Under the pieces are notes generated by a model. That model did not search any database. It was not told the origin of the DNA and saw only the letters and a list, made by a program, of their open reading frames with translations. 64,000 nt of DNA, taken from assembly GCA_947054505.1 (NCBI GenBank), contig CAMRWU010000010.1:1893-65892 (forward strand), read 5' to 3'. Below, in pieces: positions 4,175-38,299 of this stretch (position 1 is its first letter; each line of letters starts with the position of its first letter). The translations under genes were made by a program, and so were the position numbers. The stretch comes from an uncultured Pseudomonadota bacterium. Its GTDB lineage: Bacteria > Pseudomonadota > Alphaproteobacteria > RF32 > CAG-239.

Positions 4175-4203
4175 TTGCCAGACGTGTAATTTTCTGGTAT
4201 AAC
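4175..4203 (+). promoter_or_regulatory. sigma70-type promoter of the spc operon
   Basis: TTGCCA (4175-4180), 17 bp, TATAAC (4198-4203), followed by GC-rich sequence, upstream of rplN. Confidence 0.75.
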
Positions 4204-4261
4204 TCTCCGGTCGCTCCTGCAAAGCAGGGACAGAAACTAAAATAAGAAAAGGAATTAAAAA

Positions 4262-7739: not shown

Positions 7740-7928
7740 ATGGCTACAAAGAAAACTATTAAAGTTACCCAAATCGGAAGTTCTATCGGACGTCCGGAAA
7801 GTCAGAAAGCAACTTTGGTTGGGCTTGGCTTGAACAAGATGCACAAAGTTTCGGTTTTGGAAGATACTCCGGCCGTTCGCGGAATGATCAGAAAGGTGGC
7901 TCACCTCGTTAAGGTTGAAGAAAATTAG
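7740..7928 (+). CDS. rpmD: 50S ribosomal protein L30
   Basis: [23 protein letters not shown]. Confidence 0.98.
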
Positions 7929-8057
7929 AGATTGCAAAAGGTGTGTCATGCTTGGAATTTTATCGCTCGTGTAACTAGATGTACACAACGCTCTAAAATT
8001 TCGGCGTAGCACACCCCTCTATCAATCTCTTAACTCAAGAATTTTAAGGTGAATAAT

Positions 8058-8516
8058 ATGAAACTTAATGAAATTAAAGATAACGAAGGCGCTAGAAAGT
8101 CTCGCAAACGCGTAGCTCGCGGTATTGGTAGCGGTTCTGGTAAAACCGGCGGGCGTGGTCAAAAAGGTCAGAAGTCTCGCTCCGGTGTTGCTATCAACGG
8201 TTTTGAAGGCGGTCAGATGCCGATTTACCGTCGTTTGCCGAAACGTGGTTTCAAAAATCCGTTTGCTAAAGTTTTTGCAGTCGTTAATTTGGATACAATC
8301 CAGAAGGCTGTTGATGCTGGTAAATTGAACGCTTCAGACATTACAATCGACGCTTTGATGAGTGCCGGTATTGTCAGCAAGAAATTGGACGGTGTCCGTT
8401 TGTTGGCTCGCGGCGCGATTACTTCCAACGTTAACATCAGTGTTAACTCCGCTTCCAAAGCAGCCGTTGCGGCTGTCGAGAAAGCCGGCGGCAAGGTTAA
8501 TGTTGTAGAAGCTTAA
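8058..8516 (+). CDS. rplO: 50S ribosomal protein L15
   Basis: [34 protein letters not shown]. Confidence 0.98.
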
Positions 8517-8532
8517 TTCGAAAACGCTTTTG

Positions 8533-8570
8533 AAAAGGCTGTTTGATTGAAAAGTCAAACAGCTTTTTTT
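8533..8570 (+). terminator. Intrinsic terminator after rplO
   Basis: GCTGTTTGA/TCAAACAGC stem followed by a T7 run. Confidence 0.8.
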
Positions 8571-8693
8571 GTTATTTTTTTAGTTAAATGCATAATTTAG
8601 TTGAATAAAAAATTTTTTAGTGTAAATATTCTAACCAAAGGGACTAAATCGTCCCTCGTTGTTTGTTTTAAATAATAGATTAAGGATGTAAAA

Positions 8694-10043
8694 ATGGTTT
8701 CATTAGCAGAGAAAATGGCTGCGAACTTGGATATGTCAGCCTTCGGTAAAGCTGAAGAACTAAAGAAAAGATTGTGGTTTACCGTTTTGGCTCTGATTGT
8801 GTTCCGCTTGGGCACATTCATTCCGTTGCCAGGGATTGATCCGAAAATTTTGGCTGAAATTTTTGCCAGAAATTCAGGCGGTATCCTTGGTATGTTTAAT
8901 ATGTTTGCCGGTGGTGCGTTGGAACGTATGACCATCTTTGCTTTGAATATTATGCCATATATTTCGGCCTCCATTATCATTCAGCTCGGACAGTCAGTGA
9001 TTCCGTCTTTGCAGGCGCTGAAAAAAGAAGGAGAGGCCGGACATCGTAAGGTTACTCAGTATACGCGTTATTTGACGGTTTTGATTACGATTGTTCAAGG
9101 TTATGGAATCGCCGTCGGTTTGGAAGGAATGACCGGAAGTGCCGGTTTATCCGCCGTGTTGATGCCGGGCTTTATCTTCCGCTTTACAACAATTGTTTCC
9201 TTGGTTGGCGGTACAATGTTTATCGTTTGGTTGGGTGAGCAAATCACAAAACGCGGTGTGGGTAATGGTTCTTCGTTAATCATTACGGTTGGTATTATTG
9301 CTAATATTCCGTCAGCATTGGCTCAGACATTTGAGTTGGGACGTGTCGGTTCGATGTCCGCTCCGGTTATTTTGATGCTGATGGCTATGGTTTTTGCTTT
9401 GATTTACTTGATTGTTTTGGTGGAGCGTGCACAACGCAAAATCACCATTCAATACCCGAAGCGTCAGGTTATGGGCAGAATGGGTGCCAGTGAAAGTTCT
9501 CACTTGCCATTGAAAATTAACCCGACCGGTGTGATTCCTCCGATTTTTGCAAGCTCTCTGTTGTTGTTGCCGATTACAATTGCAAACTTTAGCGCAGAAA
9601 GCGGTCCGGCATGGGTTCAGAATTTGAGCCAGATGTTGAGTCATGGGCAACCTTTGTATTTGGGTTTGTATGCTTTCTTGATTGCATTCTTTGCGTTCTT
9701 CTATACTGCGATTGTTTTTAATCCGGAAGAAACAGCTGACAATCTGAAAAAGCACGGTGGCTTTATTGCCGGTATTCGTCCGGGGAAAAATACTGCTGAA
9801 TATCTGGATTATGTTATTACTCGTTTGACGGTTTTGGGTGCCGTTTACTTGGTCGGTTTGTGCATTTTGCCGGAAGTTCTTATCAGCAAGTTGTCTGTTC
9901 CGTTTGTATTGGGTGGTACAACATTGCTCATCGTTGTGCAAGTGACAATGGATTTTGTTGGTCAGTTACAGTCTCATTTGATTGCTTATCAGTATGAATC
10001 TCTGATTAAAAAAGCATCTTTGGCGAATCGGAAGAAACGTTAA
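8694..10043 (+). CDS. secY: Preprotein translocase subunit SecY
   Basis: IFALNIMPYISASII, WLGEQIT..GVGNG.SL, GVIPPIFASS, IAGIRPG; about 10 hydrophobic segments. Confidence 0.99.
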   Translation: MVSLAEKMAANLDMSAFGKAEELKKRLWFTVLALIVFRLGTFIPLPGIDPKILAEIFARNSGGILGMFNMFAGGALERMTIFALNIMPYISASIIIQLGQSVIPSLQALKKEGEAGHRKVTQYTRYLTVLITIVQGYGIAVGLEGMTGSAGLSAVLMPGFIFRFTTIVSLVGGTMFIVWLGEQITKRGVGNGSSLIITVGIIANIPSALAQTFELGRVGSMSAPVILMLMAMVFALIYLIVLVERAQRKITIQYPKRQVMGRMGASESSHLPLKINPTGVIPPIFASSLLLLPITIANFSAESGPAWVQNLSQMLSHGQPLYLGLYAFLIAFFAFFYTAIVFNPEETADNLKKHGGFIAGIRPGKNTAEYLDYVITRLTVLGAVYLVGLCILPEVLISKLSVPFVLGGTTLLIVVQVTMDFVGQLQSHLIAYQYESLIKKASLANRKKR

Positions 10044-10044
10044 G

Positions 10045-10716
10045 ATGAATAAAAACGGATTAGGTCTGCATATCGTTTTTACCGGAGCTCCCGGTTGTGG
10101 TAAAGGAACTCAGGCGCGCTTGTTGAAAGAACGCGTTGCCATTCCTCATTTGTCAACCGGTGAGATGCTTCGTGCCGAGGCGGCCAAAGGGACACCTTTG
10201 GGGCTTGAGATTAAAGCTTTGATTGATGGTGGTAATCTTGTTTCTGATGAGATGATTATTAAAATGTTGTCTCAACGAATCGATGAGGATGATTGTAAGA
10301 ACGGTTTTATTCTGGATGGTTTTCCTCGGACTTTGCCTCAGGCTGAAGTTTTGGAAGAGATGCTGGCTAAAAAAGGGATAACCCTGGATGCTGTTGTTGA
10401 AATTCAGGTTCCTGATGAAATCATTATGGAGCGAATTTTAGGGCGATATGCTTGTATGTCTTGCGGTCAAGGGTATCATGATAAGTTTCAAAAGCCTAAG
10501 ATGTATGGTGTTTGCGATAATTGCGGCGGAACGGATTTTTATCGGAGAATCGATGATAATCGAGCAACAGTGCAGAATCGTCTGGTCAATTATCGGGCTC
10601 TGACATATCCGACAATTCCTTATTTTGAGCAAAAGGGATTGTTGCGTTGTGTGGATGGTACAGGTTCAATTGCGGCGGTGTCTAAGAAAATTGATGATTT
10701 GTTGGCTGTCGCCTGA
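10045..10716 (+). CDS. adk: Adenylate kinase with Cys4 metal-binding LID
   Basis: GAPGCGKGTQ, HLSTGEMLR, LDGFPR; LID CMSC...CDNC. Confidence 0.98.
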   Translation: MNKNGLGLHIVFTGAPGCGKGTQARLLKERVAIPHLSTGEMLRAEAAKGTPLGLEIKALIDGGNLVSDEMIIKMLSQRIDEDDCKNGFILDGFPRTLPQAEVLEEMLAKKGITLDAVVEIQVPDEIIMERILGRYACMSCGQGYHDKFQKPKMYGVCDNCGGTDFYRRIDDNRATVQNRLVNYRALTYPTIPYFEQKGLLRCVDGTGSIAAVSKKIDDLLAVA

Positions 10717-10829
10717 ATTTTTATGTTTCAATTTTCCGAGTCTTTTGAATGGATTGGGAATAAGAGGTAAGAAAAACGTTAATTTTTTGAAAAAAATGCG
10801 TTTTTTCAGAATTTTTATGAAATCTGAGG

Positions 10830-10857
10830 TTGACACTCGTGAAATTTAGCCTATAAT
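10830..10857 (+). promoter_or_regulatory. sigma70 promoter of the alpha operon
   Basis: TTGACA (10830-35), 16 bp, TATAAT (10852-57), followed by GC-rich CCGGC (stringent-type discriminator). Confidence 0.85.
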
Positions 10858-10927
10858 CCGGCTTAATTTTGAAAAGTGGTGATCAACTTTTTAAATGTAA
10901 TCATAATCTATAAAATGGAGAGTTAAT

Positions 10928-11296
10928 TTGGCTCGTATAGCTGGTGTAAATATTCCAACTGCCAAGAAAATTGAAGTCGCATTGACTTACATCTATGGCA
11001 TTGGTCGCAAAACTGCTCAAGACATTTGTTCCAAATCCGGTATTTCCGGTGAACGCCGTGTTCATGAATTGAGCGATGAAGATGTTGCTAAAATTCGTGA
11101 AGTTATTGACAACGATGTCGTTGTTGAAGGTGAACTCCGCCGTGAGGTTGGCGTTAATATCAAACGCCTGATGGATCTCGGTTGCTACAGAGGCTTGCGC
11201 CATCGTAAAGGCTTGCCGGTACGCGGACAGAGCACAAAACAAAATGCTCGTACCCGTAAAGGTAAACGCAAAACTGTTGCTAATAAGAAGAAATAA
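10928..11296 (+). CDS. rpsM: 30S ribosomal protein S13 (TTG start)
   Basis: [21 protein letters not shown]. Confidence 0.98.
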
Positions 11297-11309
11297 GGTA
11301 GGTTGTTAA

Positions 11310-11702
11310 ATGGCAAAAGCAGTATCACAACGTGTTAAAAGGAAAGAAAAAAAGAATATTACGGCGGGTGTTGCTCACGTAAATTCTACTTTCAACAATA
11401 CAAGAATTACAATTACAGATGCTCAAGGTAATACTGTTTCTTGGGCTACCGCTGGTGCGCAGGGTTTTAAAGGTTCTCGTAAATCTACTCCGTATGCCGC
11501 TCAGGTTGCCGCTGAAGAAGCTGGTCGCAAGGCTCAGGAACATGGTATGAAAACTCTTGAAGTTGAAGTTAAAGGTCCGGGTTCAGGAAGAGAATCCGCC
11601 ATCAGAGCATTACAGGTTATCGGTTTTACCATCACAACAATCCGTGATGTGACTCCTATTCCGCACAACGGTTGTCGTTTGAGAAAAAGACGCCGCGTAT
11701 AG
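11310..11702 (+). CDS. rpsK: 30S ribosomal protein S11
   Basis: [25 protein letters not shown]. Confidence 0.99.
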
Positions 11703-11791
11703 TGTTTCTTTATGGAAAGTGAGGCTTTTAGAGCCTCACGTCTTTTCGTTTATAAAATTTGCATATGCACTAAAATTTAGAGGACATACCC

Positions 11792-12802
11792 GTGATTCAA
11801 AAGAATTGGCAAGAACTTATTAAACCAACAAATTTGGAAGTTACCCCTCTGGAAGGCGGTAATAAAGCCAAGATTGTGGTTGAACCTTTAGAAAGAGGCT
11901 TTGGCTTGACTTTAGGTAACGCAATCAGAAGAGTTTTACTCTCCTCTTTGCAAGGTGGTGCTGTTACCAGCATCAAGATTAACGGAGTCCTGCACGAGTT
12001 TTCTGTGGTTCCGGGTGTTAGAGAAGATGTTACCGACATCGTTCTGAATATTAAAGGTTTGGCCGTTGCTGTTCACAGCGAAGGTCAGAAGACTATGACT
12101 TTGAAGGCTGAAGGTCCTTGCGAAGTTACTGCCGGTATGATTGAAACCGGTCATGACGTTGAAATCAAAAATCCGGATTTGTTTATCTGCACATTGGATG
12201 CCGGTGCCAAAATCAATATGGAATTGACTGTTGGTACAGGTAAAGGTTATGTTCCGGCCGCTTTGAACAAATCTGCTGATTCTCCGATTGGAGTTATTCC
12301 GGTTGATGCGATTTATTCTCCGGTAAGAAAAGTTTCTTACAAAGTTGAGAATACCCGCGTTGGTCAGGCTACTGACTATGATAAATTGACAATGATTGTT
12401 GAAACCAACGGCGTTGTTACTCCGGAAGATGCTGTTGCATTCTCTGCTCGTATTTTGCAAGACCAGTTGAAGCCGTTCATCAACTTTGATGAGCCGGAAA
12501 ATGAGGTTGAAGTTGAGAAAGAAGAACTGCCGTTCAACAGAAATCTGTTGAAGAAAGTTGAAGAACTTGAATTGTCTGTTCGTTCTGCCAACTGCCTCAA
12601 AAACGATAATATTGTTTACATCGGTGATTTGGTTCAAAAGACAGAAGCTGAAATGTTGCGTACACCGAACTTCGGTCGTAAGTCTTTGAACGAAATTAAA
12701 GAAGTCTTGGCTAAAATGGGTATTCATTTGGGTATGGATACACCGGGTTGGCCGCCTGAGAATATTGAAGATTTGATTCGTCGTTGTGATGAACATTTCT
12801 AG
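11792..12802 (+). CDS. rpoA: RNA polymerase alpha subunit (GTG start)
   Basis: [46 protein letters not shown]. Confidence 0.99.
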
Positions 12803-12808
12803 GAATTG

Positions 12809-12842
12809 AAAAAGCCCCCGCACTTAATGCGGGGGCTTTTTT
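12809..12842. terminator. Bidirectional intrinsic terminator directly after rpoA
   Basis: AAAAAGCCCCCGCA/TGCGGGGGCTTTTT perfect stem with A/T tails. Confidence 0.9.
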
Positions 12843-12859
12843 GTGTTTGGGGTAAATTT

Positions 12860-13303
12860 TTATTTTTGAACAAGAGACATATTTAGATTAACTTCTTCGT
12901 CTAGGTAGTACATATCACCCGTTATAGGATCAATAATCAAATAACCAATTAAACCTCCAATAACTAAGTTTCCTGCCCAATACCAAATACTAACATGCCA
13001 GTCAATAATATTAGTTTGTGTTTGAAAACCATCTTTCGAAGCTATAATGGTGTATTTTTCTGGGGTGAAATAGCCATTTTTAGCGGCTGTTTTTAGGGGT
13101 ATCACTGTCAGAGGTTGTCCTTCAAAAACAGTTTCTCCAGCTTTGTTAGTTATTTTTATATCCACTTTTTCAACGTTAGTTTTAATTGGAATCGCTTGAT
13201 TATTATCTTTCATCACAGTAGCTCAACTACTAAGATGGGTTGTAGAGATTCCAAGCATTAAGAATAAAAAAAAGTTTTTTTCATTTTTTGAACATCCTTT
13301 CAT
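12860..13303 (-). pseudogene. PEGA-like lipoprotein gene interrupted by TGA at the lipobox cysteine
   Basis: Frame reads MKGCSKNEKNFFLFLMLGISTTHLSS-TGA(13223-13225)-ATVMKDNNQ... and continues as the 118-aa ORF 12860..13216 (KDGF, WYWAGNLVIGGLIGYLIIDPITG). AT-rich, atypical codon usage. Confidence 0.65.
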
Positions 13304-13319
13304 TATTGTTAAAATAAAA

Positions 13320-13510
13320 CCCATCAGAAAAGGTGGGAGGATGTTCAGAAACCGTTCATAGATAAAGACGGCTCGGCTTATTTGGCAGAGCCTTATTCAC
13401 CGACATCCGTCCGATGGACAAGAAGCGGCGTATAATTTATTAGTCGCAATATACAGTGCGACTATCTATGATTAGGGTTTCTGATGCCCTAGATATGCAG
13501 AACATATCCG
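13320..13510 (-). ncRNA. Putative structured leader RNA (c4/Ash-like architecture)
   Basis: Long-range complementarity TCAGAAACC 13345-53 / GGTTTCTGA 13476-84 and TCATAGATA 13356-64 / TATCTATGA 13463-71, enclosing three internal hairpins. Confidence 0.45.
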
Positions 13511-13541
13511 ATTTTGACTGTAGATGAAAATATTGGATAAC

Positions 13542-13577
13542 AAAGAAAGCGCCATGGTATTCCATAGCGCTTTTTTT
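13542..13577 (-). terminator. Terminator after fabG
   Basis: AAAGCGC...GCGCTTT stem with inner CCATG/CCATA-region pairing and a T-rich flank. Confidence 0.7.
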
Positions 13578-13590
13578 GAGTTGAGGCAAT

Positions 13591-14328
13591 TTAAATCATT
13601 GCCATACCACCGTTGATATTGATGGTTTGACCTGTGATATACTGAGCTTCGTCAGAGGCCAAGAATGCAACAACGTTGGCGATGTCTTGTGCTTCACCGA
13701 GTTTGGCTTCCGGAATTTTAGCCAACAGAGCTTTTTTAACGTCTTCCGGCAGAACATCGGTCATCGGTGTTCTGATGAAGCCTGGGGCGATAGAGTTAAC
13801 TGTTACGCCGCGGGAACCAACTTCCTGAGCCAAGCATTTGTTCATGGCAATCATACCTGCTTTGGAGGCAGAGTAGTTAGCCTGACCGGCATTACCTGTT
13901 ACGCCCACAACAGAAGCGATACCGATGATGCGGCCGAAACGACGTTTCATCATGCCACGAACAGCGGCTTTAGCCAATTTGAAACCGGCTGACAAGTTAA
14001 CGTCCAAAACCAACTGCCAATCTTCATCGCTCATACGGATGAACAAGTTGTCGCGGGTCAAGCCTGCGTTGTTAACCAAAATGTCAATACGGCCCAATTT
14101 TTCTTCAACTTTTTCAACCAAGTTTTTTACGTCATCAGCGTTGGTCAGGTTAGCAGTGAAAACTTCAACATTGCTACCGAGTTCGGCTTTTAACTTCAAC
14201 ATCGGTTCTTCACGCATATCTGTCAAAGCCAAAGTTGCGCCCTGAGCATGCAGTGTGCGGGCAATTTTATCGCCGATACCGCCGGCGGCGCCGGTGATGA
14301 GAGCTACTTTACCATCTAATCTAAACAT
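13591..14328 (-). CDS. fabG: 3-oxoacyl-ACP reductase
   Basis: ALITGAAGGIG, LVNNAG, NYSASKAG (YxxxK), ININGGM; start MFRLDGK. Confidence 0.97.
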   Translation of the reverse strand: MFRLDGKVALITGAAGGIGDKIARTLHAQGATLALTDMREEPMLKLKAELGSNVEVFTANLTNADDVKNLVEKVEEKLGRIDILVNNAGLTRDNLFIRMSDEDWQLVLDVNLSAGFKLAKAAVRGMMKRRFGRIIGIASVVGVTGNAGQANYSASKAGMIAMNKCLAQEVGSRGVTVNSIAPGFIRTPMTDVLPEDVKKALLAKIPEAKLGEAQDIANVVAFLASDEAQYITGQTININGGMAMI

Positions 14329-14376
14329 ATTTTTTCCTTTCACGGGTGTGCTTTTGAATATCAGCAAGCACAACCT

Positions 14377-15327
14377 TTATTTCTGTAATGTTTTTGCCAA
14401 TTCTTCAATCTCGGCAACAGAGCCGGCAGAAATGGCGGTTATTCCTTTTTTACTGCGGTTGATGATACCGGAGAGCACTTTTCCGGCTCCCAGTTCGGCA
14501 ACATTTTCAACATTCTGTTCAGCCAGATAATCAACCGTTTCTCGCCAGCGGACAGAGCCGGTGACTTGTTTGACCAAGTTGGCAACGATTGTTTCGGCGT
14601 TGTCAACTGCGGCGGCAGCCACATTGGAAATTAACGGTACGGTAGGTGTGTGAGCCTTTACTTGTTGCAAAGCTTCGGCCATAACTTCTGCCGCCGGTTG
14701 CATCAACGGGCTGTGAAAAGGGGCGCTGACCGGAAGTTTGATGCAACGTTTGGCACCAAATTCCGAAGCAATTTCGACCGCCTTTTCAATCGCGGCCAGA
14801 TGTCCGGACAAAACAACTTGTCCATCAGCATTATCATTGGCGGCAACACAGATGTTTTTTTCATCGGCACAAGCTTCTGCCAGAGCAGAAACATCTTGAT
14901 AAGAGGCGCCGATGACCGCAGCCATTCCTCCGACCCCGACGGGAACAGCCTTTTGCATGGCGTCGCCGCGGGTACGGAGTAATTTAGCCGTATCAGTCAA
15001 TGAGAATACACCGGCAGCACAGGCGGCAGAGTATTCACCCAAAGAGTGACCAGCTACAAAACTCGCATAATCTTTTATTGAAATTCCAAAGTCTTTTTCA
15101 AGAATTCTGACCACAGCCATTGAGTGCGCCATCAGCGCCGGCTGTGCGTTTGATGTTAAAATCAAATTGCTTTCAGGTCCTTCGACCATAATCTTAAACA
15201 AATCTTGTGAAAGCGCATCATTAACTTCCTGAAAAACATCACGGGCCGAAGCAAAATTATCGGCCAACTCTTTTCCCATTCCGACAAACTGAGATCCTTG
15301 TCCGGGGAAGACAAAAGTGTATTTCAT
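14377..15327 (-). CDS. fabD: Malonyl-CoA:ACP transacylase
   Basis: FPGQGSQ, AGHSLGEY, LPVSAPFHS. Confidence 0.98.
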   Translation of the reverse strand: MKYTFVFPGQGSQFVGMGKELADNFASARDVFQEVNDALSQDLFKIMVEGPESNLILTSNAQPALMAHSMAVVRILEKDFGISIKDYASFVAGHSLGEYSAACAAGVFSLTDTAKLLRTRGDAMQKAVPVGVGGMAAVIGASYQDVSALAEACADEKNICVAANDNADGQVVLSGHLAAIEKAVEIASEFGAKRCIKLPVSAPFHSPLMQPAAEVMAEALQQVKAHTPTVPLISNVAAAAVDNAETIVANLVKQVTGSVRWRETVDYLAEQNVENVAELGAGKVLSGIINRSKKGITAISAGSVAEIEELAKTLQK

Positions 15328-15491
15328 TTATTTAACGTTCCTTATTATTAATATCTTGAGAATCTTTATAGATTGAGGGCTAAAAGTCAAGTTTTAAAAG
15401 CCGGTTATGCGCTGTTTGCTGTTTGTTAAGACAATTTTGAGAAATTGGCGTTATACTTTTGCCGAATTCTGCATTTTTACAGGTAAAGTCA

Positions 15492-17756
15492 ATGGCAAAA
15501 AAGAAGAAAAAAGAAAAAACATTGTGGGCAAAAATCGGTTGGCGATTATTGGGGTTGGCAATTATGTTATGGGTTGTCAGCTTGTGGGGTTCCTTCTTGT
15601 TTTATCATCATTCCGACAGCGCTGTTAATGTGGCGTCGGCTCATCCGGTGCAAAACTTTTTAGGTTTGTACGGAGCTGCTAATGCGGATGTGATTTTGAC
15701 ATGGATGGGGCTTGCCGTGCCGGTGTTTTTATTGGCAGTGTTTTTGTGGGGATATAGTTTTTTGCGCCTCAGGAGTTTGGTTCATCCGTATTGGCGTGTC
15801 TTTGCCTTTGTTATGGGAACGGTGTCTTTAGCGATTTTTGTCAGTTTGTTGCGGCCGTATTGGGGGGAGTTGAAAACCGGCGGTAATATCGGTTTGTTTT
15901 TATCTCGCCAATTTATGACGCTTTTGAATCGTTTTCATGCGTTTGCTTACGGGCGTTATTTGCTGGCGGCCGTGTTTGGTGTTGTTTCGTTGTTAGCTTT
16001 TAATCTGGCCTGCGGACTGACGTTAAAAGAATGGTACCAGACTTTCAAAAGGATTGTGCTGTTTGTGGTGGCGGCGGTCGTCGCTTGCGGAGAGGGCGTG
16101 AAATCTTTGTTTGCCAAACTGAAAGCGCATCCGACAGAAGAAAAGCCGCGGCGCAAACGTGAGCCTAAAGCCAGAAAAGAGCCTAAACTCGCGGAGGAGA
16201 AAGAAAAAACATCCGTCAAAAAGCCTCAGGAAGTTAAAATTTCAAAACCCAAAAAAGTTGATGACGGTTATCGTTGTCCGGATTTGAATTTGTTGACCTT
16301 AAACAAAGAAAAGGTTGCTAATGTCAATCAGAAAGAATTGGATAAAATCGCACTGGATTTGGAAGGTGTTTTGCAGGAATTCGGTGTTAACGGTAAGATT
16401 GTGAAAGTACGCCCCGGTCCGGTGGTAACCTTATATGAGCTTGAACCGGCTCCGGGGACGAAAAGCGCACGAGTTATCGGATTGGCGGATGATATCGCTC
16501 GTTCAATGAGTGCTGTTTCGGTGCGTATTGCCGTGGTTCCGGGGTCTAATACCATAGGTATTGAGTTGCCTAATCCGAAGCGGGAAATTGTTTATTTGCG
16601 TGAACTGCTGGAAAGCGGTGATTTTAAGGAGTCAAGTGCGGCGCTGACAATTACCTTGGGTAAGGATATCGGAGGTAAAAACGTTTATGCGGATTTGGCA
16701 AAAATGCCTCACTTGCTGGTTGCCGGTACAACCGGTTCCGGTAAGTCCGTTGGTGTAAACTCAATGATTATTTCTCTACTTTATCGGATGCGTCCGGATG
16801 AATGCAAGCTGATTATGATTGATCCGAAAATGCTTGAGTTTACTATGTATAACGGTATTCCGCATTTGTTAACGCCGGTTATTACCGATCCTGCGAAAGC
16901 TGTTATCGGTTTGAAATGGGCTGTGAAGGAAATGGAAGACCGTTATCGTGCAATGGCAAAACTGAATGTTCGTAATATTACCGGCTATAATAAACGGTTG
17001 GAAGAGTTGCGTTCAACGGGTGAAAAGGTTATGCGCACCGTGCAGACCGGTTTTGATATGGAAACCGGAAAACCGATTTTTGAAGAACAGGAATTGGATT
17101 TGACACCGTTGCCGTATATCGTCATTGTGGTTGATGAAATGGCCGATTTGATGTTGGTGGCCGGTAAGGATGTGGAAGCCGCCATTCAGCGTTTGGCGCA
17201 GATGGCTCGTGCGGCCGGAATCCATTTGATTATGTCAACTCAACGTCCGTCAGTGGATGTGATTACCGGTACGATTAAAGCGAATTTTCCGACGCGTATC
17301 AGTTTTCAAGTTACGTCCAAAATTGACAGTCGTACGATTTTAGGCGAACAGGGAGCAGAGCAACTTCTGGGGATGGGCGATATGTTGTATATGCCGGCCG
17401 GACAACGCCCGAATCGTGTTCATGCACCGTTTGTAAAAGATAGTGAAGTTGAGGCGGTTGTCGAATTTTTGAAATCACAGAAAGAACCGGAATATGTTGA
17501 GGCGGTGACCGAAGGTGAATTGAATACTGATAAAGGCGGTGCTGTTTTTGACAAAGGTGACTTTAGTGGCGGTGGTGATGAAGATTTGTATTCTCAGGCT
17601 GTTGCCATTGTGCAGTCAGATAAAAAAGCTTCAACCAGCTATATTCAGCGTCGGTTGAGAATCGGCTATAATCGAGCTGCTTCTCTTATTGACCGTATGG
17701 AACAAGAGGGGATTATATCGGCGGCTGATCATGTGGGGCGGCGCGAAGTCCTTTAA
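15492..17756 (+). CDS. ftsK: DNA translocase FtsK
   Basis: N-terminal TM segments, PGPVVTLYE, Walker A AGTTGSGKS, VDEMADLM, C-terminal gamma domain QRRLRIGYNRAA. Confidence 0.98.
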   Translation: MAKKKKKEKTLWAKIGWRLLGLAIMLWVVSLWGSFLFYHHSDSAVNVASAHPVQNFLGLYGAANADVILTWMGLAVPVFLLAVFLWGYSFLRLRSLVHPYWRVFAFVMGTVSLAIFVSLLRPYWGELKTGGNIGLFLSRQFMTLLNRFHAFAYGRYLLAAVFGVVSLLAFNLACGLTLKEWYQTFKRIVLFVVAAVVACGEGVKSLFAKLKAHPTEEKPRRKREPKARKEPKLAEEKEKTSVKKPQEVKISKPKKVDDGYRCPDLNLLTLNKEKVANVNQKELDKIALDLEGVLQEFGVNGKIVKVRPGPVVTLYELEPAPGTKSARVIGLADDIARSMSAVSVRIAVVPGSNTIGIELPNPKREIVYLRELLESGDFKESSAALTITLGKDIGGKNVYADLAKMPHLLVAGTTGSGKSVGVNSMIISLLYRMRPDECKLIMIDPKMLEFTMYNGIPHLLTPVITDPAKAVIGLKWAVKEMEDRYRAMAKLNVRNITGYNKRLEELRSTGEKVMRTVQTGFDMETGKPIFEEQELDLTPLPYIVIVVDEMADLMLVAGKDVEAAIQRLAQMARAAGIHLIMSTQRPSVDVITGTIKANFPTRISFQVTSKIDSRTILGEQGAEQLLGMGDMLYMPAGQRPNRVHAPFVKDSEVEAVVEFLKSQKEPEYVEAVTEGELNTDKGGAVFDKGDFSGGGDEDLYSQAVAIVQSDKKASTSYIQRRLRIGYNRAASLIDRMEQEGIISAADHVGRREVL

Positions 17757-17899
17757 AAAGTCATCAATTGGAAAGGGTGTTGCAGTCCGTCCGGAGTTAT
17801 TCTCTAACCTTATTAGATAAATATCGGGTAGCGATATATCTTGATTAATTTTGTTTTTCCGATTATATCTGACAATAAGAAGAAATAAGGAGAAAATAT

Positions 17900-18277
17900 A
17901 TGGCTGAGAATAAAGAGCCGTCACAGCGTCAATTGCGTGTGGGACAAGAAATCAAAAGAATTATTGCCGGAGAGATTGAGCGAGATGAAGTGCGCAACTT
18001 GGAAGGTATTGAGGTGATGGTAACGATTATGGAAGCCAGAGTAGCGCCTGATTTGAAGTATTGTAATGTTTATTTTATCACTTCTGATGATGCGAAAAAC
18101 GAAGAAGTGCGTGAAGCTTTACAATTGGCGGCTAATCATTTTCGCAAGGTTATCGGCCGCAAGACAGAGTTACGTTATGTGCCGGAGATTAATTTCCGTA
18201 TCGATAATAGTTTTGCAGAGGTTGATAAGATTGAGAAGCTTTTGCGGAATCCCAAGGTTGCTCAAGATTTGCAATAG
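17900..18277 (+). CDS. rbfA: Ribosome-binding factor A
   Basis: SQRQLRVGQEIK, VAPDL, LRYVPEINFRID.S. Confidence 0.95.
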   Translation: MAENKEPSQRQLRVGQEIKRIIAGEIERDEVRNLEGIEVMVTIMEARVAPDLKYCNVYFITSDDAKNEEVREALQLAANHFRKVIGRKTELRYVPEINFRIDNSFAEVDKIEKLLRNPKVAQDLQ

Positions 18278-18283
18278 TTTATG

Positions 18284-18306
18284 AAACCGCCGAAAGGCGG
18301 TTTTTT
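18284..18306 (+). terminator. Terminator after rbfA
   Basis: AAACCGCC-GAAA-GGCGGTTTTTT. Confidence 0.9.
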
Positions 18307-18307
18307 C

Positions 18308-18336
18308 TTGACTCCGAAGCAAAGAGAAGGTACGAC
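18308..18336 (+). promoter_or_regulatory. Putative promoter of the orphan ORF at 18372
   Basis: TTGACT, 17 bp, TACGAC. Confidence 0.5.
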
Positions 18337-18371
18337 TCGTTCATTAAATCTTATAATTAATTTTTACAATT

Positions 18372-18863
18372 ATGAAACCGATGTCAATTTTTCAAGTCAT
18401 TCGTATTGATGATACCCGAGTGGTTATTCGTCATTACAACGAAGAGACAGACAGATTTGAAAAAATCTGTTCTGCGCGAGATGATGCTTCTCTTTCCATG
18501 CAACCGCGCAATTATCGCTTGATCCGCGAGAAACTGCTGATTACTCCAGAAGGAAAAATCTGTTACAATTATCAGGGACGCCTCTGTTATCTGGGGGATC
18601 GATCTCAGTTGGTTACGGTTCTGGAAGCAACAACCGATGCGTTACTGATGCTGGATGTTTTCGCTCTGCATTTGCCGTTTCGTTATTTGTTTATTCCCGA
18701 GCAAGGCGAGTGGTTCGAAGAGGTCATTTCTTATAAAGAAATTGAGGGAGGTCTTGAGCTTCAGGTCGCTCCCAAACGATGGGTGAAATGCACTCTGCGG
18801 ACAGAGAGCTATAATGATCCGGAGTATGGACCCACGAGTTATACGATGTTGTGTCGTAGATGA
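18372..18863 (+). CDS. Hypothetical protein (163 aa, beta-rich, orphan-like)
   Basis: Only long ORF between two terminators; own promoter; no motif recognised. Confidence 0.8.
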   Translation: MKPMSIFQVIRIDDTRVVIRHYNEETDRFEKICSARDDASLSMQPRNYRLIREKLLITPEGKICYNYQGRLCYLGDRSQLVTVLEATTDALLMLDVFALHLPFRYLFIPEQGEWFEEVISYKEIEGGLELQVAPKRWVKCTLRTESYNDPEYGPTSYTMLCRR

Positions 18864-18864
18864 T

Positions 18865-18897
18865 AAAAACCGGTGTTGCTTGGCAACACCGGTTTTT
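18865..18897 (+). terminator. Terminator
   Basis: AAAAACCGGTGTTG-CTTGG-CAACACCGGTTTTT perfect 14-bp stem. Confidence 0.9.
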
Positions 18898-18967
18898 GAA
18901 TTGACTCTTTTTTCGATTTGTTCTAATTTTTGGACAGAAAAGCAGAATTATTAAATATATTATTGGT

Positions 18968-20176
18968 ATGAAGAAATCAAAACATTATCGAGTCATCCAA
19001 ACTGTGGAACTGCAAGTTTGGGATGGCAAAGAACAAGCTTTTAAAACAGTGGTGGAGAAAGCTTCGTTTTTCAAAGAAGATGACAAGCAATTGTTTATCG
19101 GGCAAAGCGCGAAAAAATGTACGCTCTATGCTAAGACAAACAAAGGTTTGGTTGCCGGTCCCAGCATGTTTACTCGTGCGGAATATCTTGGCGGTGCATT
19201 CATCTACAGCAAAGGGCGTCAGTGGTTTCTGCAATTTCTCAATTCTGAGGATTGTGCGGCACTGGGGCGCGATGCGACCTATCAATGCATTGGCGGTCTT
19301 TATGTGATTGAGGCGTATAGTGTTAAACGACGCGACAGCATTGTCTTTCTTTACTCTCCTCAAACACAAGAGCTTTCCATGTGGTATGATACTTATTATC
19401 AGACAGATGCTTCTGCGAAATTCGGTGTTATACTGCGACAAGGGAACGATTATATCCATATCAGCGTTACGCAGAAAAAGAAATTGCTGGGTCGTTACGA
19501 CAAGGCCGGCGATTACTTCTGGCGGCGTAGTGATGCCGGTACTTTTATCGTTTCTTACGTCACGGATGACGGCAGAAGATGGGAAAGCGAGCGATATTGC
19601 GATTTGTCAATGTATCAGGTTCCGTATTGTGCTTTCGGTGAAAGTGCTTATAAGCATCATTCCCGTGTTGCAACCAAGTTTAACGGATCTTTTGATATCA
19701 TCAAACAAGCAACCGTTCAAGAATGGCTGGCTCCCCGCGGATTGAAAGATGATATGAGAGGCATTTGCCTTCTTCTGGAAGCGGGAGACGAGGCAAAAAC
19801 AATTCCGATGCGGATTGCTGTCGGTTGTCCGGAGCGGTATGGTGTCGCTCGTTACAGGAAGGTCTTTGAAGGCGAGGTCTATCTTCAGTGGTTCAATCTT
19901 ATTGTCGTCAAACGCGGCGAGTGGTTTGTTCTGTATCATATCGACAGACGGGGAATGTTGACGGAAATTGAACGTTCCTCGGTGTTGGATTACAACCCTG
20001 GAAAGTTTTGGTGTCAAGCGCCGTATGGCCCTTATGCCGAAGTAGACTATTGGGGGGAAGAAGGTATCAGACTTGCCAAAGAAACGACATGGCATTGGAG
20101 GTTGAGCCAATTTACCCGCCCACGGTTGGACTGTTCGCCGAAACGTAGTTGGTGGCGCCGGCTTTTAAATCTGTAA
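18968..20176 (+). CDS. Hypothetical protein (402 aa, aromatic/beta-rich, orphan-like)
   Basis: Long uninterrupted ORF; upstream TTGACT-17-TAATTT (18901-18929); no motif recognised. Confidence 0.85.
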   Translation: MKKSKHYRVIQTVELQVWDGKEQAFKTVVEKASFFKEDDKQLFIGQSAKKCTLYAKTNKGLVAGPSMFTRAEYLGGAFIYSKGRQWFLQFLNSEDCAALGRDATYQCIGGLYVIEAYSVKRRDSIVFLYSPQTQELSMWYDTYYQTDASAKFGVILRQGNDYIHISVTQKKKLLGRYDKAGDYFWRRSDAGTFIVSYVTDDGRRWESERYCDLSMYQVPYCAFGESAYKHHSRVATKFNGSFDIIKQATVQEWLAPRGLKDDMRGICLLLEAGDEAKTIPMRIAVGCPERYGVARYRKVFEGEVYLQWFNLIVVKRGEWFVLYHIDRRGMLTEIERSSVLDYNPGKFWCQAPYGPYAEVDYWGEEGIRLAKETTWHWRLSQFTRPRLDCSPKRSWWRRLLNL

Positions 20177-20278
20177 ACTGAGTTGACGGCTTCGGAGAAA
20201 TCCGGAGCCTTCGGCTTTTTTAAACGCGTTGACAAGTCGGGGGCTTTCTTTTATGAAAGAACAAACAGGAGATTTTTT

Positions 20279-21193
20279 ATGCGCCATAAAAAAGGAAATG
20301 CCGTCAACGGCTGGTTAATTATTGACAAGCCGCGAGATATGGGATCAACGCAGGTCGTAAATTTGACACGCCGTTTGTTCAACGCTAAGAAGAACGGGCA
20401 TTGCGGAACATTAGATCCTTTTGCAACCGGTGTTCTGCCGATTGCTTTCGGGGAGGCGACCAAGCTTATCCCCTATGTGACCGACGGCGCAAAGGAATAT
20501 GAGTTTATTATCAAATGGGGCTGTGAAACGGATAGCGGTGATACTGAGGGAACCGTGACGGAAAGCGGCGGGCGTGTTCCGACGCGTGATGAAATTTTGC
20601 AAATTTTGCCATCTTTTTGGGGAACGATAACTCAGGTTCCTCCTGCTTATTCTGCCATCAAAATAAACGGGCAGAGAGCGTATGATTTGGCGCGGCGAGG
20701 TGAGGAGGTTGACATGCCGTCTCGGCAGGTTGAAATTTATTCTCTTGAGTTGTTGGAAGAATTGTCGGCGAATCGGGCAAAGTTTCGGGTGGGATGTTCC
20801 AAAGGGACGTATATTCGCACTTTAGGAAGAGATATTGCCAGAAGACTCGGAACATTCGGCTATCTGGAAGAACTTCGGCGGACAAAATGCGGCAATTTTG
20901 ACTTGAGTCAGAAGATTTTGCTGGAAAATATAAAAAATATGGAGTATGGTGAAGACCTTGAAGAAGTTTTGCTTCCTTTAATAACTTGTCTGCGCGACAT
21001 CGCGGTCATAGCTGTAGGGGAAGTTGAAGCAACCAAGCTTCGTCAAGGGCAGGGGCTGTCCCCCAAGATGTTTGACGTGTCAAATCTGATCGGGAAGGAA
21101 GCCGCTGTGACGTATGACGGGCAGTTGGTTGCGATAGTGCGAATCGAAGAACGCAAAATTTCTCCGGTTCGGGTTTTTAATCTTAATAAATAA
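20279..21193 (+). CDS. truB: tRNA pseudouridine(55) synthase
   Basis: [44 protein letters not shown]; promoter TTGACA-17-TATGAA upstream. Confidence 0.98.
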
Positions 21194-21200
21194 GGAAAAT

Positions 21201-21473
21201 ATGATGTCGATTTCTAATGAAAAGAAACAAGAATTAGTTAAAGCTTATGGTTTGAATCCGAACGATACCGGTTCTCCGGAAGTTCAGATTGCAATTTGGA
21301 CAGCTGAAATCAATAACCTGATTGAACACTTCAAAACTCATGCCAAAGATACTCACTCTCGTCTGGGTTTGATGAAGAAAGTCAGCCGTCGTCGTCACCT
21401 TTTGGATTACCTGAAAGGTAAAAGCGAAAGCAGATATCAGGATTTGATTAAAAAATTAGATCTCAGAAAATAA
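21201..21473 (+). CDS. rpsO: 30S ribosomal protein S15
   Basis: [25 protein letters not shown]. Confidence 0.99.
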
Positions 21474-21718
21474 ATTTATGCGGCATCTGGAGCAAAAAAT
21501 ACAGGACAAAAAAAATTCACGTAGTAGTGTCTACGCTAAAATTTTTGTTGCCCTGTTTTTCACTCCAGTTGCCTACTTAAATTTATTTTCTCCGTGCCAT
21601 AAACACGTGGTGTTGTGGTAAGGTTTTATAGAACTGCGGGCAATGATGTTTCGCGGTTCTTTTTGTAAAAATCCTGCATGGGGCAGGTAGATGATTGTAT
21701 GAAGAAAGGTAAAGAAAT

Positions 21719-23839
21719 ATGATCGATTTTAAAGTGTGCCGCAAAGAGATGGAATGGGGCGGCCGCAAGTTGGTATTAGAAACAGGTAAAATGGCAAGAC
21801 AGGCTACCGGCGCTGTTGTTGTTACCTATGGCGGAACAGAAGTTATTGCGACAGTGTGCGCAGCAAAAGAGGCAAAGGCAGATCAGGATTTCTTTCCTTT
21901 GACAGTTAACTATCAGGAAAAATATTATGCAACCGGTAAAGTTCCCGGTGGTTTTATGAAACGTGAAGGTAAACCTTCCGAACGCGAAGTTTTGTTGTCT
22001 CGTTTGATTGATCGTCCTATCCGTCCGTTGTTTCCGGATGCTTTCAAAAATGAAGTTCAGATTATTTGTACGGTTTTGTCACATGACCAAAACACCGACT
22101 CAGATATTCCGGCTATGATTGCGGCTTCTGCTGCTTTGGCAATTTCGGGTATTCCGTTCTTGGGTCCTATCGCCGGTGCGAAAGTCGGTTATAAAAACGG
22201 TGAATATATTTTGAATCCGACGATTGAACAGCTCAAAGATACGGATTTGGAATTGGTTGTTGCCGGTACATCTGAAGGCGTTTTGATGGTAGAATCTGAG
22301 GCTCAGGAATTGTCCGAAGAAACGATGCTCGGAGCCGTTATGTTCGGTTTTGACAGCTTCCAGCCGGTTATCAAATTGATTGGCGAGTTGAAGGCTGATG
22401 CCGGTAAAGAAGCTTGGGAAGCTCCTGTATTTCCGCCGGAGTTTGACGCTTTGTACAATCGTATCGAAAAAGAATTCGGCGCTAAATTTGCCGAGGCTTT
22501 TAAGGAAACCGATAAATTAAAACGCGGTACTTTGGTTGGTCAGGCTTCTGAAGAAGTTAAGGCGACAATTGATCCTGAAAATGAATTGGAAGTTCGCTAT
22601 GTTGGCGATGCTATTGAAAAATTGATGCACAAAGTTATGCGTGAGGCTGTTTTGACAACCGGTCATCGTATTGACGGTCGTGATACCAAAACGGTTCGTC
22701 CGATTGAATGTCAGGTTGATGTTTTGCCGATGGCTCACGGTTCAGCTTTGTTTACTCGTGGAGAGACACAGGCTTTGGTTGTCACCACTTTGGGTACAGG
22801 CGAAGATGCTCAGATTATCGATGGTTTGTTGGATGAATATAAAGAAGACTTTATGCTCAATTATAACTTCCCGCCGTTCTCTGTCGGTGAATGCGGTCGT
22901 ATCGGAAGTCCGGGACGTCGTGAAATCGGTCACGGAAAATTGGCTTGGCGCGCTATCCACCCAATGATGCCGAAAGATAAGGATGCATTCCCGTATACCA
23001 TTCGCGTGGTTTCTGAGATTATGGAATCCAACGGTTCTTCTTCTATGGCAACTGTTTGCGGTACGACAATGTCTTTGATGTCTGCCGGTGTGCCGATGGA
23101 AAAGCCGGTTGCCGGTATTGCGATGGGTTTGATTAAAGAAGACGATGGTCGTGTTGCCGTTTTGACAGATATTCTCGGTGACGAAGATCACCTCGGTGAT
23201 ATGGATTTCAAAGTTGCCGGAACAAAAGACGGTGTAACTGCTTTGCAAATGGATATCAAAATTACATCCATTACTAAAGAAATCATGAAGACAGCGTTGG
23301 CTCAGGCGCATGAAGGACGTATTCATATTTTGGGCGAGATGGCAAAAGCTATTGCCGCTCCGCGTCCGCATGTTTCTGACAAGGCACCGCGTATTGTCGC
23401 AATTAAAATTCCGGTTGATAAAATCCGTGAAGTTATCGGTACAGGCGGTAAGGTTATTCGTGAAATCGTTGAAAAAACTCATACCAAAATTGACATTACT
23501 GATGACGGTGTCGTTAAAATCGCTTCTATGAAAAAAGAAGACGGTGATGCGGCTTTGGAATGGATTATGGGTATTGTTGCCGAACCGGAAGAAGGCAAAA
23601 TCTATCATGGTGTTGTTACCAAGATTATGGATTTTGGTGCTTTTGTTCGCTTCTTGGGAACAACCGAAGGTTTGGTTCATATTTCCGAAGTTAAGCCGGA
23701 AAGAATCGCAACCGTTTCTGAGTTCTATAAAGAAGGTGATTCTATTTGGGTTAAATGTCTGGGAACGGATAATCGCGGTAAGGTCAAACTTTCAGCCAAA
23801 CGCGTTAATCAGGAAACAGGCGAAGATCTCGAGAAGTAA
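21719..23839 (+). CDS. pnp: Polyribonucleotide nucleotidyltransferase
   Basis: [40 protein letters not shown] and S1 domains. Confidence 0.99.
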
Positions 23840-23855
23840 TCAAGAATCTTTGTTG

Positions 23856-23888
23856 AAAAAAGCCGAGAATAAACATTCTCGGCTTTTT
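23856..23888 (+). terminator. Terminator after pnp
   Basis: AAAAAGCCGAGAAT/ATTCTCGGCTTTTT. Confidence 0.9.
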
Positions 23889-23962
23889 CTTGACTTTTAT
23901 TTGTTTTTGTCTAAAATGTTGCTATCTTAAAAAATTAGAAAAAGAAATTATTAACCATTTTA

Positions 23963-24265
23963 ATGCCTAGTAACATGAGTGCATATTTTTTTATGATCAT
24001 CATGCTTGTTATGCTGGTTTGCTTCGCTCTCTGGAATGCTGATGTGAGGTTCTCGAAGCATCGCAAAAAAGTGACCAAGCAAGTGTTTATCGTCGTTATC
24101 TGTCTTATCGGTGTTATGGCTGTCTTTCTTACGCTTGATTTGCTGGATAGTCAGGCCATGTATCCGGAGATATATAAGCCGTATATCATGAATTATTATC
24201 CGATGGTCTTGTGGTCGTTGGTTAGTGTTCTGATGTATGGCGTTTATCGCAGAATGTTCTCATAA
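23963..24265 (+). CDS. Hypothetical membrane protein (3 TM)
   Basis: Three hydrophobic segments; own promoter TTGACT-16-TAAAAT (23890-23917) and terminator (24271-24309). Confidence 0.75.
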   Translation: MPSNMSAYFFMIIMLVMLVCFALWNADVRFSKHRKKVTKQVFIVVICLIGVMAVFLTLDLLDSQAMYPEIYKPYIMNYYPMVLWSLVSVLMYGVYRRMFS

Positions 24266-24414
24266 CGAGAGAAACGTCGTCTTTGTGAAAAGACGGCGTT
24301 TCGTTTTTTAAAAAATCCTTGAAAAATAAAAAAAAGTGATGTATGAGTCAACTCACCTGTCATGGCACCCCTGGAGGCCGGATGGGTTTGTTTAATTTTT
24401 TTAGGAATTTAAAA

Positions 24415-24705
24415 ATGGTATCTATTACATTTAATGCTGAAAAGCGTGAGAAAGCAGGTAAGGGGGCAGCTCGTGCGTGTCGTCGTGAGGGTCGCATTCC
24501 TGCCGTTATTTATGGTGGAAAACAAGAAAGCATTATGATTTCTTTGCACCCTGTTGAATTGGAAAAAGCTTTGGATACAGCTGGTTTTTACAATGCTGAT
24601 ATCGAAGTTGTTTTAGACGGCAAAAAAATCAAAGTCGCTTGTCAGGATGTACAGTTTCATCCGGTGTCTGATGCGCCGTTGCATGTTGACTTCTTGAGAA
24701 AGTAA
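24415..24705 (+). CDS. rplY: 50S ribosomal protein L25, single-domain short form (96 aa)
   Basis: GKGAARACRREGRIPAVIYG, DVQFHPV, HVDFLRK*; start after AGGA ribosome-binding site. Confidence 0.96.
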   Translation: MVSITFNAEKREKAGKGAARACRREGRIPAVIYGGKQESIMISLHPVELEKALDTAGFYNADIEVVLDGKKIKVACQDVQFHPVSDAPLHVDFLRK

Positions 24706-24838
24706 AACGTATTTTGGCTTTCTAATACAGATTTTTCGGGTTGGTGAAATGCTCATGTACGTCTTGTACACTCCGCTTTCACCCCCTGAAATCTTATTAT
24801 AAAGTTCAAACTCTGCTTTACTTTCAGCGGCTAAATTT

Positions 24839-24865
24839 CAATCCTGATTGCAGGATTGTTTTTTT
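24839..24865 (+). terminator. Terminator-like hairpin 13 nt upstream of the pth start
   Basis: CAATCCTG-ATTG-CAGGATTG followed by T7. Confidence 0.7.
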
Positions 24866-24878
24866 ATTGAGGGTTGCT

Positions 24879-25921: not shown

Positions 25922-26032
25922 TCTGAAAATAAAAGCCTTATCTGAAAAGATGAGGCTTTTATTGTTGAAAAAAGAAACTTTATCCGTTATAAGAAAAACA
26001 ATTTTATAGCTATAAAAACAGGAGTTTATTTT

Positions 26033-38297: not shown

Positions 38298-38299
38298 GC

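Follow-up and report, generated by a model that had tools for sequence, protein, structure and literature searches.

Three long hairpins, found between rpmD and rplO, rpsO and pnp, and rplY and pth, are carried on the plus strand of a 64-kb stretch of DNA from an uncultured alphaproteobacterium (contig CAMRWU010000010.1; the whole stretch is called the window below, and coordinates are window positions). These hairpins are probably copies of a superfamily of interspersed imperfect palindromes, composed of two related subtypes, similar in kind to the REP, ERIC and Correia repeats and co-transcribed with its hosts as a 3′ or intercistronic stem-loop. The superfamily is specific to uncultured gut and rumen Alphaproteobacteria (labelled 'Azospirillum sp.', Ca. 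Scatocola or similarly), with relatives in some environmental alphaproteobacterial metagenome-assembled genomes (MAGs). As an interspersed palindromic repeat it is of a known kind, and the family is new; its tie to the stop codon of the gene upstream, and to the direction of that gene, is unusually strict. A first-pass annotation of the window had noticed the apical motif shared by the hairpins and had attributed it to an element that segments ribosomal protein (r-protein) operons. The observation is confirmed; the interpretation was partly right and too narrow.

The three hairpins of the window

The hairpins, their apical modules and the one ordinary terminator adjoining them are as follows.

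7921..8034, plus strand: rpmD-rplO hairpin, a type-2 copy of the repeat, between the L30 and L15 genes; fold z −4.75; 114 bits with covariance model R2 (see below)
7965..7992, plus strand: apical module of the rpmD-rplO hairpin; GC clamp, internal loop, 5-bp stem GUGUA/UACAC, 8-nt loop
21463..21595, plus strand: rpsO-pnp hairpin, a full-length type-1 copy, between the S15 gene and pnp; inverted repeat I16; fold z −6.16
21516..21541, plus strand: apical module of the rpsO-pnp hairpin, TTCA CGTAG tagtgt CTACG CTAAAA, fitting the pattern TTCAYGTAS-N5-6-STACRCTAAAA
24698..24827, plus strand: rplY-pth hairpin, a type-1 copy of the 'CTAATACAG' subtype, between the L25 gene and pth; fold z −4.38
24751..24777, plus strand: apical module of the rplY-pth hairpin, GC UCA UGUAC guc uu GUACA CUCC GC
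24841..24866, plus strand: ordinary intrinsic terminator read from the sequence, CAATCCTG-attg-CAGGATTG then T7, between the rplY repeat and pth, outside the repeat

Minimum free energies were −33, −26 and −35 kcal/mol for the rpmD-rplO, rplY-pth and rpsO-pnp hairpins, respectively, and none of 200 shuffles folded as well as any of the three. The folds bear out the earlier description of long hairpins in which a shared apical stem sits on an asymmetric internal loop, above a lower stem that is long and irregular. The strings quoted for them proved exact: GCTCGTGTA-actaga-TGTACAC-AA-CGCT at 7965-7992, GCTCATGTA-cgtct-TGTACAC-TC-CGCT at 24751-24777 and the variant TTCACGTAG-tagtgt-CTACGCTAAAATTT at 21516-21544. 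The full elements extend beyond the hairpins as first drawn, to the outer limits listed above. The 27-nt motif GCTCRTGTA-N-TGTACAC-NN-CGCT was found at two window sites only, the rpmD-rplO and rplY-pth hairpins, with 0 expected from 200 Markov shuffles; its loose core, YRTGTA-N4-9-TACAC, is expected 0.2 times by chance in the window.

Pfam identified the flanking genes as those for L30, L15, S15, PNPase, L25 and Pth. The rpmD stop codon (TAG, 7926-7928) adjoins the basal helix of its copy, the rpsO stop (TAA, 21471-21473) lies within a 14-bp basal helix (arms 21465-21478 and 21578-21591), and the rplY stop (TAA, 24703-24705) is part of an AAGUAA sequence that pairs with UUACUU at 24816-24821. 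The rpmD and rplY copies are without a U-tract. About 120 nt of further leader separate the rpsO-pnp copy from the pnp start. The rplY gene itself (24343-24705) encodes a short L25 of 96 amino acids, without the CTC extension usual in Alphaproteobacteria; the mechanically called open reading frame (ORF) begins 24 codons further upstream.

Dispersal and structure of the repeat family

A scan of loci from relatives revealed further copies, each in sense orientation, after rplO, pnp and ppdK. Over its upper 40 nt, the rplY hairpin in one of its versions was nearly identical to the rpsO-pnp hairpin of the window, and the module common to the two yielded the strict apex pattern given in the list above. 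This pattern matched at least 120 stretches in a collection containing one genome per species. Among the matches listed, about 124 of 129 fell in some 70 alphaproteobacterial MAG assemblies from gut, rumen and environmental sources, several per assembly and up to 5 per MAG; the other 5 were chance matches in other phyla, all inside ORFs. A search of 2.9 million viral contigs returned one chance match, without the full element, and a phage origin was rejected on that ground. Copy density was about 1 per 25-50 kb of sequence (about 1 independent copy per 50 kb if the model finds lying beside seeded copies are taken into account), and the window holds three in 64 kb; tens of copies per genome are therefore to be expected. 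Units of 105-125 nt are nearly identical at unrelated loci. Copies are found singly or in head-to-tail arrays, which can combine the two subtypes; at least 8 loci have such pairs, repeating every 121-128 nt.

For L15 and Pth of the window, the closest relatives come from MAGs of uncultured Alphaproteobacteria of the gut and rumen, whose labels vary between 'Azospirillum sp.', Azospirillaceae and Ca. Scatocola, and the DNA runs containing the window sequence (X1-X19) are mouse-gut metagenomes. Environmental MAGs labelled Rickettsiales, UBA6187 and others (L192, L201, L218, L219, L223, L240, L246, L176) have the same apical module within different arms. These arms end in TATAGYA...TRCTATA adjoining TA, which resemble transposon termini; the copies have different gene contexts and are often not in sense with the neighbouring gene.

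Alignment of 115 distinct copies defined a unit of about 125 nt (range 115-135 nt) with the consensus aaAAnnTCGTATAAyGGcnCATCTAGAGCnATTTTac-gnGGTCTCGAAAAATTCAyGTACttcTaTGTACrCTAAAATTTTTCTCGCcnCTAGAAATcaCTCTATCTgnnCCATTCTCCGAnnTTTtt. The unit forms a single long, imperfect palindrome, its approximately 46 pairs falling into four helices: a basal helix between an A-run and a T-run, a second containing the conserved box UCUAGAG/CUCUAUC, a third that is A/U-rich, and a 5-bp apical stem resting on an asymmetric internal loop (5′ CA, 3′ CUAA). For 79 non-redundant copies, 85.5% of the cells at paired positions could pair, versus 64.5% in column shuffles, and 791 cells were changed on both sides versus 245, a value that none of 500 shuffles reached. 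Sliding the partner by 1-3 columns reduced pairing to 34-51%. Among copies outside the pattern selection, the apical stem covaries as well (CAUUUAC/GUAAAC, CACCUAG/CUAGGC, CACGUAU/AUACGC).

Covariance model R1 (type 1) was built from pattern-derived copies of other genomes, without any window sequence, and was run on the window with filters off. It recovered the rpsO-pnp hairpin with 97.9 bits (E 8.5e-23) and the rplY-pth hairpin with 42.1 bits (E 8e-8); over the 64 kb nothing else was significant, the rpmD-rplO hairpin scoring 13-18 bits only. Elsewhere, R1 added about 25 copies close to seeded ones. Model R2 (type 2), built from the rpmD-rplO orthologues, found matches at non-orthologous sites, after ppdK (L142) and after rplO (L007), as well as directly beside type-1 copies (L166, L187, L208, L248, L256) and near one in L242. 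Some of its finds are chimeras in which type-1 outer arms, AAAGTTCGTATAATGG...CATTCTACGAACTTT, surround a type-2 apex, TCGCTTGTGTAC...GTACACGTCGCT. From these finds and chimeras it follows that the rpmD-rplO hairpin represents a second subtype of the same superfamily, a subtype likewise dispersed, of which it is an old copy passed on by vertical inheritance. The motif first noticed is thus the core common to both subtypes and not an r-protein operator.

Rfam 15, searched at gathering thresholds over the whole window, gave no match, in keeping with the earlier remark that the motif belonged to no recognised RNA family. Allowing E up to 1 produced only chance sub-threshold matches, such as a plant microRNA precursor at 29.6 bits (threshold 60.5). 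A 'sar' match at 24268-24334 on the minus strand (31 bits, threshold 43) is probably fortuitous too. No description of the repeat was found in the literature. The 3′ strand of the apex (UGUACAC..CGC) presumably resembles 16S rRNA around positions 1390-1404, a likeness noticed post hoc, to which no weight was given; the window contains no rRNA. The annotation had supposed a lineage-specific family and had named a model scan and covariation in homologues as the ways to check it. On these counts it was right: the models recovered many more copies, and compensatory change was found both across the family and at an orthologous site.

That site is the rpmD-rplO spacer, where the same hairpin occurs in 10 relatives and other relatives have only a short G+C hairpin. 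In the orthologues the apical UGUA/UACA is invariant, two internal loops and the flanks TTGCAAA/TTATCAA are conserved, and in the set of eleven orthologous copies 19 of the 34 predicted pairs show compensatory changes. Orthologous copies of the rpsO-pnp hairpin were found in L245, L271 and L278, and orthologous or paralogous copies of the rplY-pth subtype in L090, L095, L097, L102, L107, L109, L162, L163, L190, L198, L221 and L262. In about 16 relatives the rplY-pth spacer contains a hairpin whose apex reads TCATGTAC-N5-TGTACACT and whose lower stem exists in two clearly different versions; other relatives have a plain terminator or a 10-nt spacer. Different subtypes occupy this site in the window and in L081, two genomes with 93% identity in Pth; both hairpins are closed by a helix that the last rplY codons (GAAAGTAA/G) form with TTACTTTC further downstream. 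At the rplO-secY site a copy is present in L005, L007, L229, L237 and L270, and a plain terminator elsewhere. Two copies within one MAG (L195 and L215) have almost identical 105-nt cores and differ in the outer 5-7 bp, which are perfectly complementary within each copy.

The rplY-pth terminators of L085 and L092 retain the AGAGCG...CGCTCT box and the 3′ arm GCCTTGAAAATCGCTCT, without the apex. Judging from their sequences, they look like repeat derivatives that lost the apex and turned into plain terminators.

Gene context and transcription

When copies were oriented by the apex, 94 had their nearest upstream ORF on the same strand and 17 on the opposite one. Several of the latter were artefacts of ORF picking, ppdK, fusA, gatC or rpsO being the actual upstream gene, and others belong to the environmental group. 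The downstream gene was co-directional in 39 cases and convergent in 31. The upstream ORF was clear for 72 copies and ended in TAA in 62, TAG in 8 and TGA in 2. In 49 of the 72 the stop codon preceded the apex pattern by 46-53 nt, which places it within the basal helix. In another 13 the distance was 36-37 nt: the ORF enters the element and ends at a conserved GTA-TAA, so that the proteins concerned terminate in valine. None of about 120 alphaproteobacterial copies lay inside an ORF, the element contributing no more than the final 1-3 codons plus the stop. A proposal that the 5′ arm offers three in-frame stops was rejected, since their spacing is 12 or 13 nt and the frame is not constant.

The end of L15 illustrates this arrangement. 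The window protein ends in ...KVNVVEA, and where the element adjoins rplO the ending is ...KVNLV or ...KLV. In these rplO-adjoining copies (L229, minus strand; L005, 1940-2130; L237; L270) L15 is shortened, the element's CTC-GTA-TAA supplying its last codons and stop.

Upstream genes, named by eye from their translations, are of more than 40 kinds. That every copy follows an r-protein gene, as the annotation had noted, therefore holds in the window and not as a property of the family. The gene list bears directly on the idea of a cis-regulatory RNA dedicated to r-protein operons, whose apex would be recognised by one nuclease or regulator that segments the transcripts. Beyond the three window copies and the conservation of the apex in orthologues whose stems covary, this idea could draw on the many hosts related to translation (fusA, infB, lepA, era, rbfA, rlmH, gatB, gatC, rpsC); rplO, rpsO, rpoA and nusB are also among the upstream genes. 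But the element equally follows ppdK, ackA, pyk, glgB, atpG, fabF, fabZ, dnaK, secA, ftsH, ssb, bamA, recJ, mutL, ddl, kdsB and a MacB-like permease gene, and cysK and gmk are upstream genes as well. Furthermore, about half of the window's genes encode r-proteins, which renders three out of three non-significant; no feature was found that would mimic rRNA specifically for L30, L15, S15 or L25, and a single motif cannot mimic four different rRNA sites. A dedicated r-protein element is thus very unlikely. The supposed tie to r-protein operons is contradicted by the variety of hosts, by dispersal and by the head-to-tail arrays; together, the host range, the density and the arrays are the behaviour of an interspersed repeat and not of an operator serving one regulon.

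At the base of the element, 56 of 91 copies had an A-run of at least 4 on the 5′ side, and 64 of 91 (70%) had a T-run of at least 4 on the 3′ side; together these runs give the element the look of a bidirectional terminator. One could accordingly picture a lineage-specific form of intrinsic terminator or attenuator, bidirectional, oversized and not mobile, which arose in situ where genes end and was homogenised by recombination between copies. Consistent with this picture, copies are located exactly as ordinary terminators are, with the stop codon in the 5′ A-tract, and relatives have plain terminators at the same sites, some of them resembling an element without its apex (L085, L092). The habit of ordinary terminators to start at the stop codon would account for the repeat's position but not for its orientation. 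Growth in place does not explain the near-identical 105-125-nt units at unrelated loci or the head-to-tail arrays, and a terminating function fits poorly with the presence of copies inside essential operons (rpmD-rplO, fusA-tuf, rpsC-rplP), where termination would be harmful. In addition, T-runs are as frequent at operon-internal as at other sites, the rplY copy of the window is followed by a canonical terminator of its own, and RNA contigs read through the copies. We consider an origin as an enlarged terminator unlikely.

The RNA evidence consists of assembled Logan contigs of RNA runs, which cannot show 3′ ends. Metatranscriptome contigs span all three window copies. A second contig from a mouse-gut metatranscriptome (run X26, record 8) matches only the 35-nt rplY apex (24746-24780) and continues into different arms, …CTAGTACAAAATTAGCGGGCCAGA / TCTGGCCCTAAATTTTTACTA…; it represents another copy of the same subtype elsewhere in that community.

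A few other features of the window were recorded. The spacer between rpsQ (S17) and rplN (L14) contains a fourth strong hairpin (4155-4236, plus strand; about −42 kcal/mol in a 100-nt window) with CGTGTA in its loop. It was rejected as a family member because neither R1, R2 nor any Rfam family matched it. The rpoA gene ends at 12802 and a canonical terminator follows directly (12809-12841); in the relative L161, a repeat copy takes the place of the terminator after rpoA. On the plus strand no rplQ (L17) ORF follows rpoA (12803-13590), and a minus-strand ORF of 117 amino acids downstream of it (12860-13216) has no Pfam match. Ordinary terminators at 38276-38310, 52887-52930, 63028-63065 and 25928-25963 are perfect bidirectional hairpins with an A-tract, stem and T-tract; in the ordinary terminators of this genome, the TAA stop of the upstream gene already lies inside the 5′ arm. 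A search of the window for tRNA and tmRNA genes found none.

Proposed mechanism and comparison with known systems

The interspersed-repeat reading can be put as follows. The element would be a small, mobile but non-autonomous repeat of the REP, ERIC or Correia kind that spreads or once spread. Transcribed with its host gene, it would fold into a long stem-loop in the RNA, at the cistron's 3′ end, and it is this co-transcription that suggests a role for the RNA. The stem-loop could be a barrier to 3′-5′ exonucleases or, given the frequent T-run at its base, a leaky terminator. The long duplex interrupted by internal loops would be a plausible RNase III substrate, its length in the fold being sufficient for an enzyme that makes staggered cuts in duplexes of about 20 bp or more. 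A stop codon less than 15 nt from the element might also turn it into a brake on terminating ribosomes. The compensatory changes at the rpmD-rplO site, the retention of copies in essential operons and the orientation rule argue that the structure is under selection at fixed sites and not merely decaying.

Several observations weigh against this account. Conservation of the apex in the alignment (A2) is partly imposed by the search pattern. The antisense strand folds better in 75 of 79 copies, the sense fold being weaker by about 10 kcal/mol because of conserved C.A/A.C oppositions at fixed internal-loop positions. The flat depth of the RNA contigs, their possible DNA content and the fact that they cross a canonical terminator make them uninformative on processing and termination. 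Copies between co-transcribed essential genes cannot be efficient terminators, so that termination could be only partial, as also indicated by the equal T-run frequency within and outside operons and by the rplY copy's own terminator. In the gut-clade copies no target-site duplication (TA or CG) and no direct duplication was seen, nor was a conserved terminal inverted repeat found, the apex being conserved and the ends variable, which is the reverse of a classical miniature inverted-repeat transposable element (MITE). No transposase was found for them in windows of up to 8 kb around the matches, the part of the genomes that was scanned. Finally, simple transposition does not explain the strict orientation and the anchoring to the stop codon.

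Some of these points would suit a structure selected in DNA, a single-stranded hairpin read by an HUH/Y1 enzyme (RAYT or IS200-like) or another DNA-binding protein. The RNA fold and the location at gene ends would then be by-products, and the orientation bias would reflect the direction of replication. Y1 transposases read conserved irregularities in the hairpins of REP sequences and IS608, and the mismatches and internal loops of the repeat are likewise conserved at fixed positions; the complementary strand would fold better, and the environmental copies have transposon-like ends. However, replication-strand bias leaves unexplained the anchoring of the stop codon to within a few nucleotides, the arrays are head-to-tail and do not alternate as in bacterial interspersed mosaic elements (BIMEs), and no gene for such an enzyme was seen, though none was looked for. 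We regard selection at the DNA level as improbable. An antisense RNA as the functional strand was not relied on either: the A.C oppositions occupy few fixed positions, two of them set by the search pattern, and the sense strand of the orthologous rpmD copies has more G.U than A.C pairs.

A bolder proposal, which we rate as quite unlikely, is a module acting in the sense RNA only, with the stop codon held in the basal helix. The terminating ribosome would have to open the hairpin, and a dedicated factor reading the apex and the CA/CUAA loop would decide the fate of the mRNA, be it cleavage, stabilisation or reinitiation on the next cistron. Such a module would have spread by insertion targeted to gene ends in a fixed orientation, yielding outer stems that are complementary and specific to each copy, a mode that would be undescribed for MITEs or REPs.

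With tens of copies per small genome, some within the essential spc, str and rpsO-pnp operons, and with its place next to stop codons, the repeat is likely to influence how stable the transcripts of many core genes are, how they are processed and how strongly the genes are expressed relative to one another, in bacteria that are common in mammalian guts though uncultured. As a practical marker, the repeat breaks assemblies, can be mistaken for a regulatory RNA, and shows a turnover usable for strain typing. Its fixed orientation and stop anchoring also make it a natural system for the effects of stop-codon hairpins on termination and mRNA decay.

Among known structures at such positions, RNase III of Escherichia coli cleaves a stem in the rpsO-pnp leader, and the window copy similarly fills the rpsO-pnp spacer as a long irregular hairpin. 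However, the additional leader of about 120 nt before pnp and the occurrence of the element after dozens of unrelated genes distinguish it from a pnp-specific autoregulatory structure. Autoregulatory r-protein leaders are confined to their own operon and mimic an rRNA site, whereas the repeat accompanies more than 40 kinds of gene and matches no Rfam leader. Intrinsic terminators combine a G+C-rich stem with a U-tract; the repeat has the T-run in 64 of 91 copies, but its basal helices are A/U-rich.

The Rickettsia palindromic elements (RPEs) are likewise alphaproteobacterial palindromic repeats of 100-150 nt with many subtypes. They are known for in-frame insertion inside protein-coding genes, unlike the gut repeat, for which no copy inside an ORF was found among the approximately 120 alphaproteobacterial ones. 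ERIC/IRU of enterobacteria and the Correia/nemis elements of Neisseria are MITE-like and measure 100-160 bp. The gut repeat is of similar size (about 125 nt) and, like them, forms a single long imperfect palindrome that is present in tens of copies or more, intergenic yet transcribed, both inside operons and at gene ends, and able to fold as an RNA hairpin. Correia elements end in TATAG...CTATA, as do the environmental copies, and their RNA hairpins are RNase III substrates, the mechanism proposed in the first-pass annotation. Differences are the lack of sequence similarity and of any Rfam match for the gut repeat, the conserved centre and variable ends of the gut-clade copies with no TA duplication seen, and the nearly fixed orientation to the upstream gene with the stop codon in the basal helix. 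No partner transposase is known for the gut repeat.

The position at the stop codon has a parallel in the repetitive extragenic palindromic (REP) sequences of E. coli and its relatives. REPs are shorter (20-40 nt versus about 125 nt), and BIME arrays alternate in orientation whereas those of the gut repeat run head-to-tail. Features that REPs and BIMEs have in common with the gut repeat are a palindromic sequence that is extragenic yet transcribed, clustering where genes end (in many cases no more than 15 nt from a stop codon), arrays composed of different subtypes, and stems that covary. REPs no further than 15 nt from the stop codon are reported to make ribosomes stall and to reduce translation of the gene upstream (PMC12306157, citing its ref. 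17); the stop-codon geometry of the gut repeat is the same.

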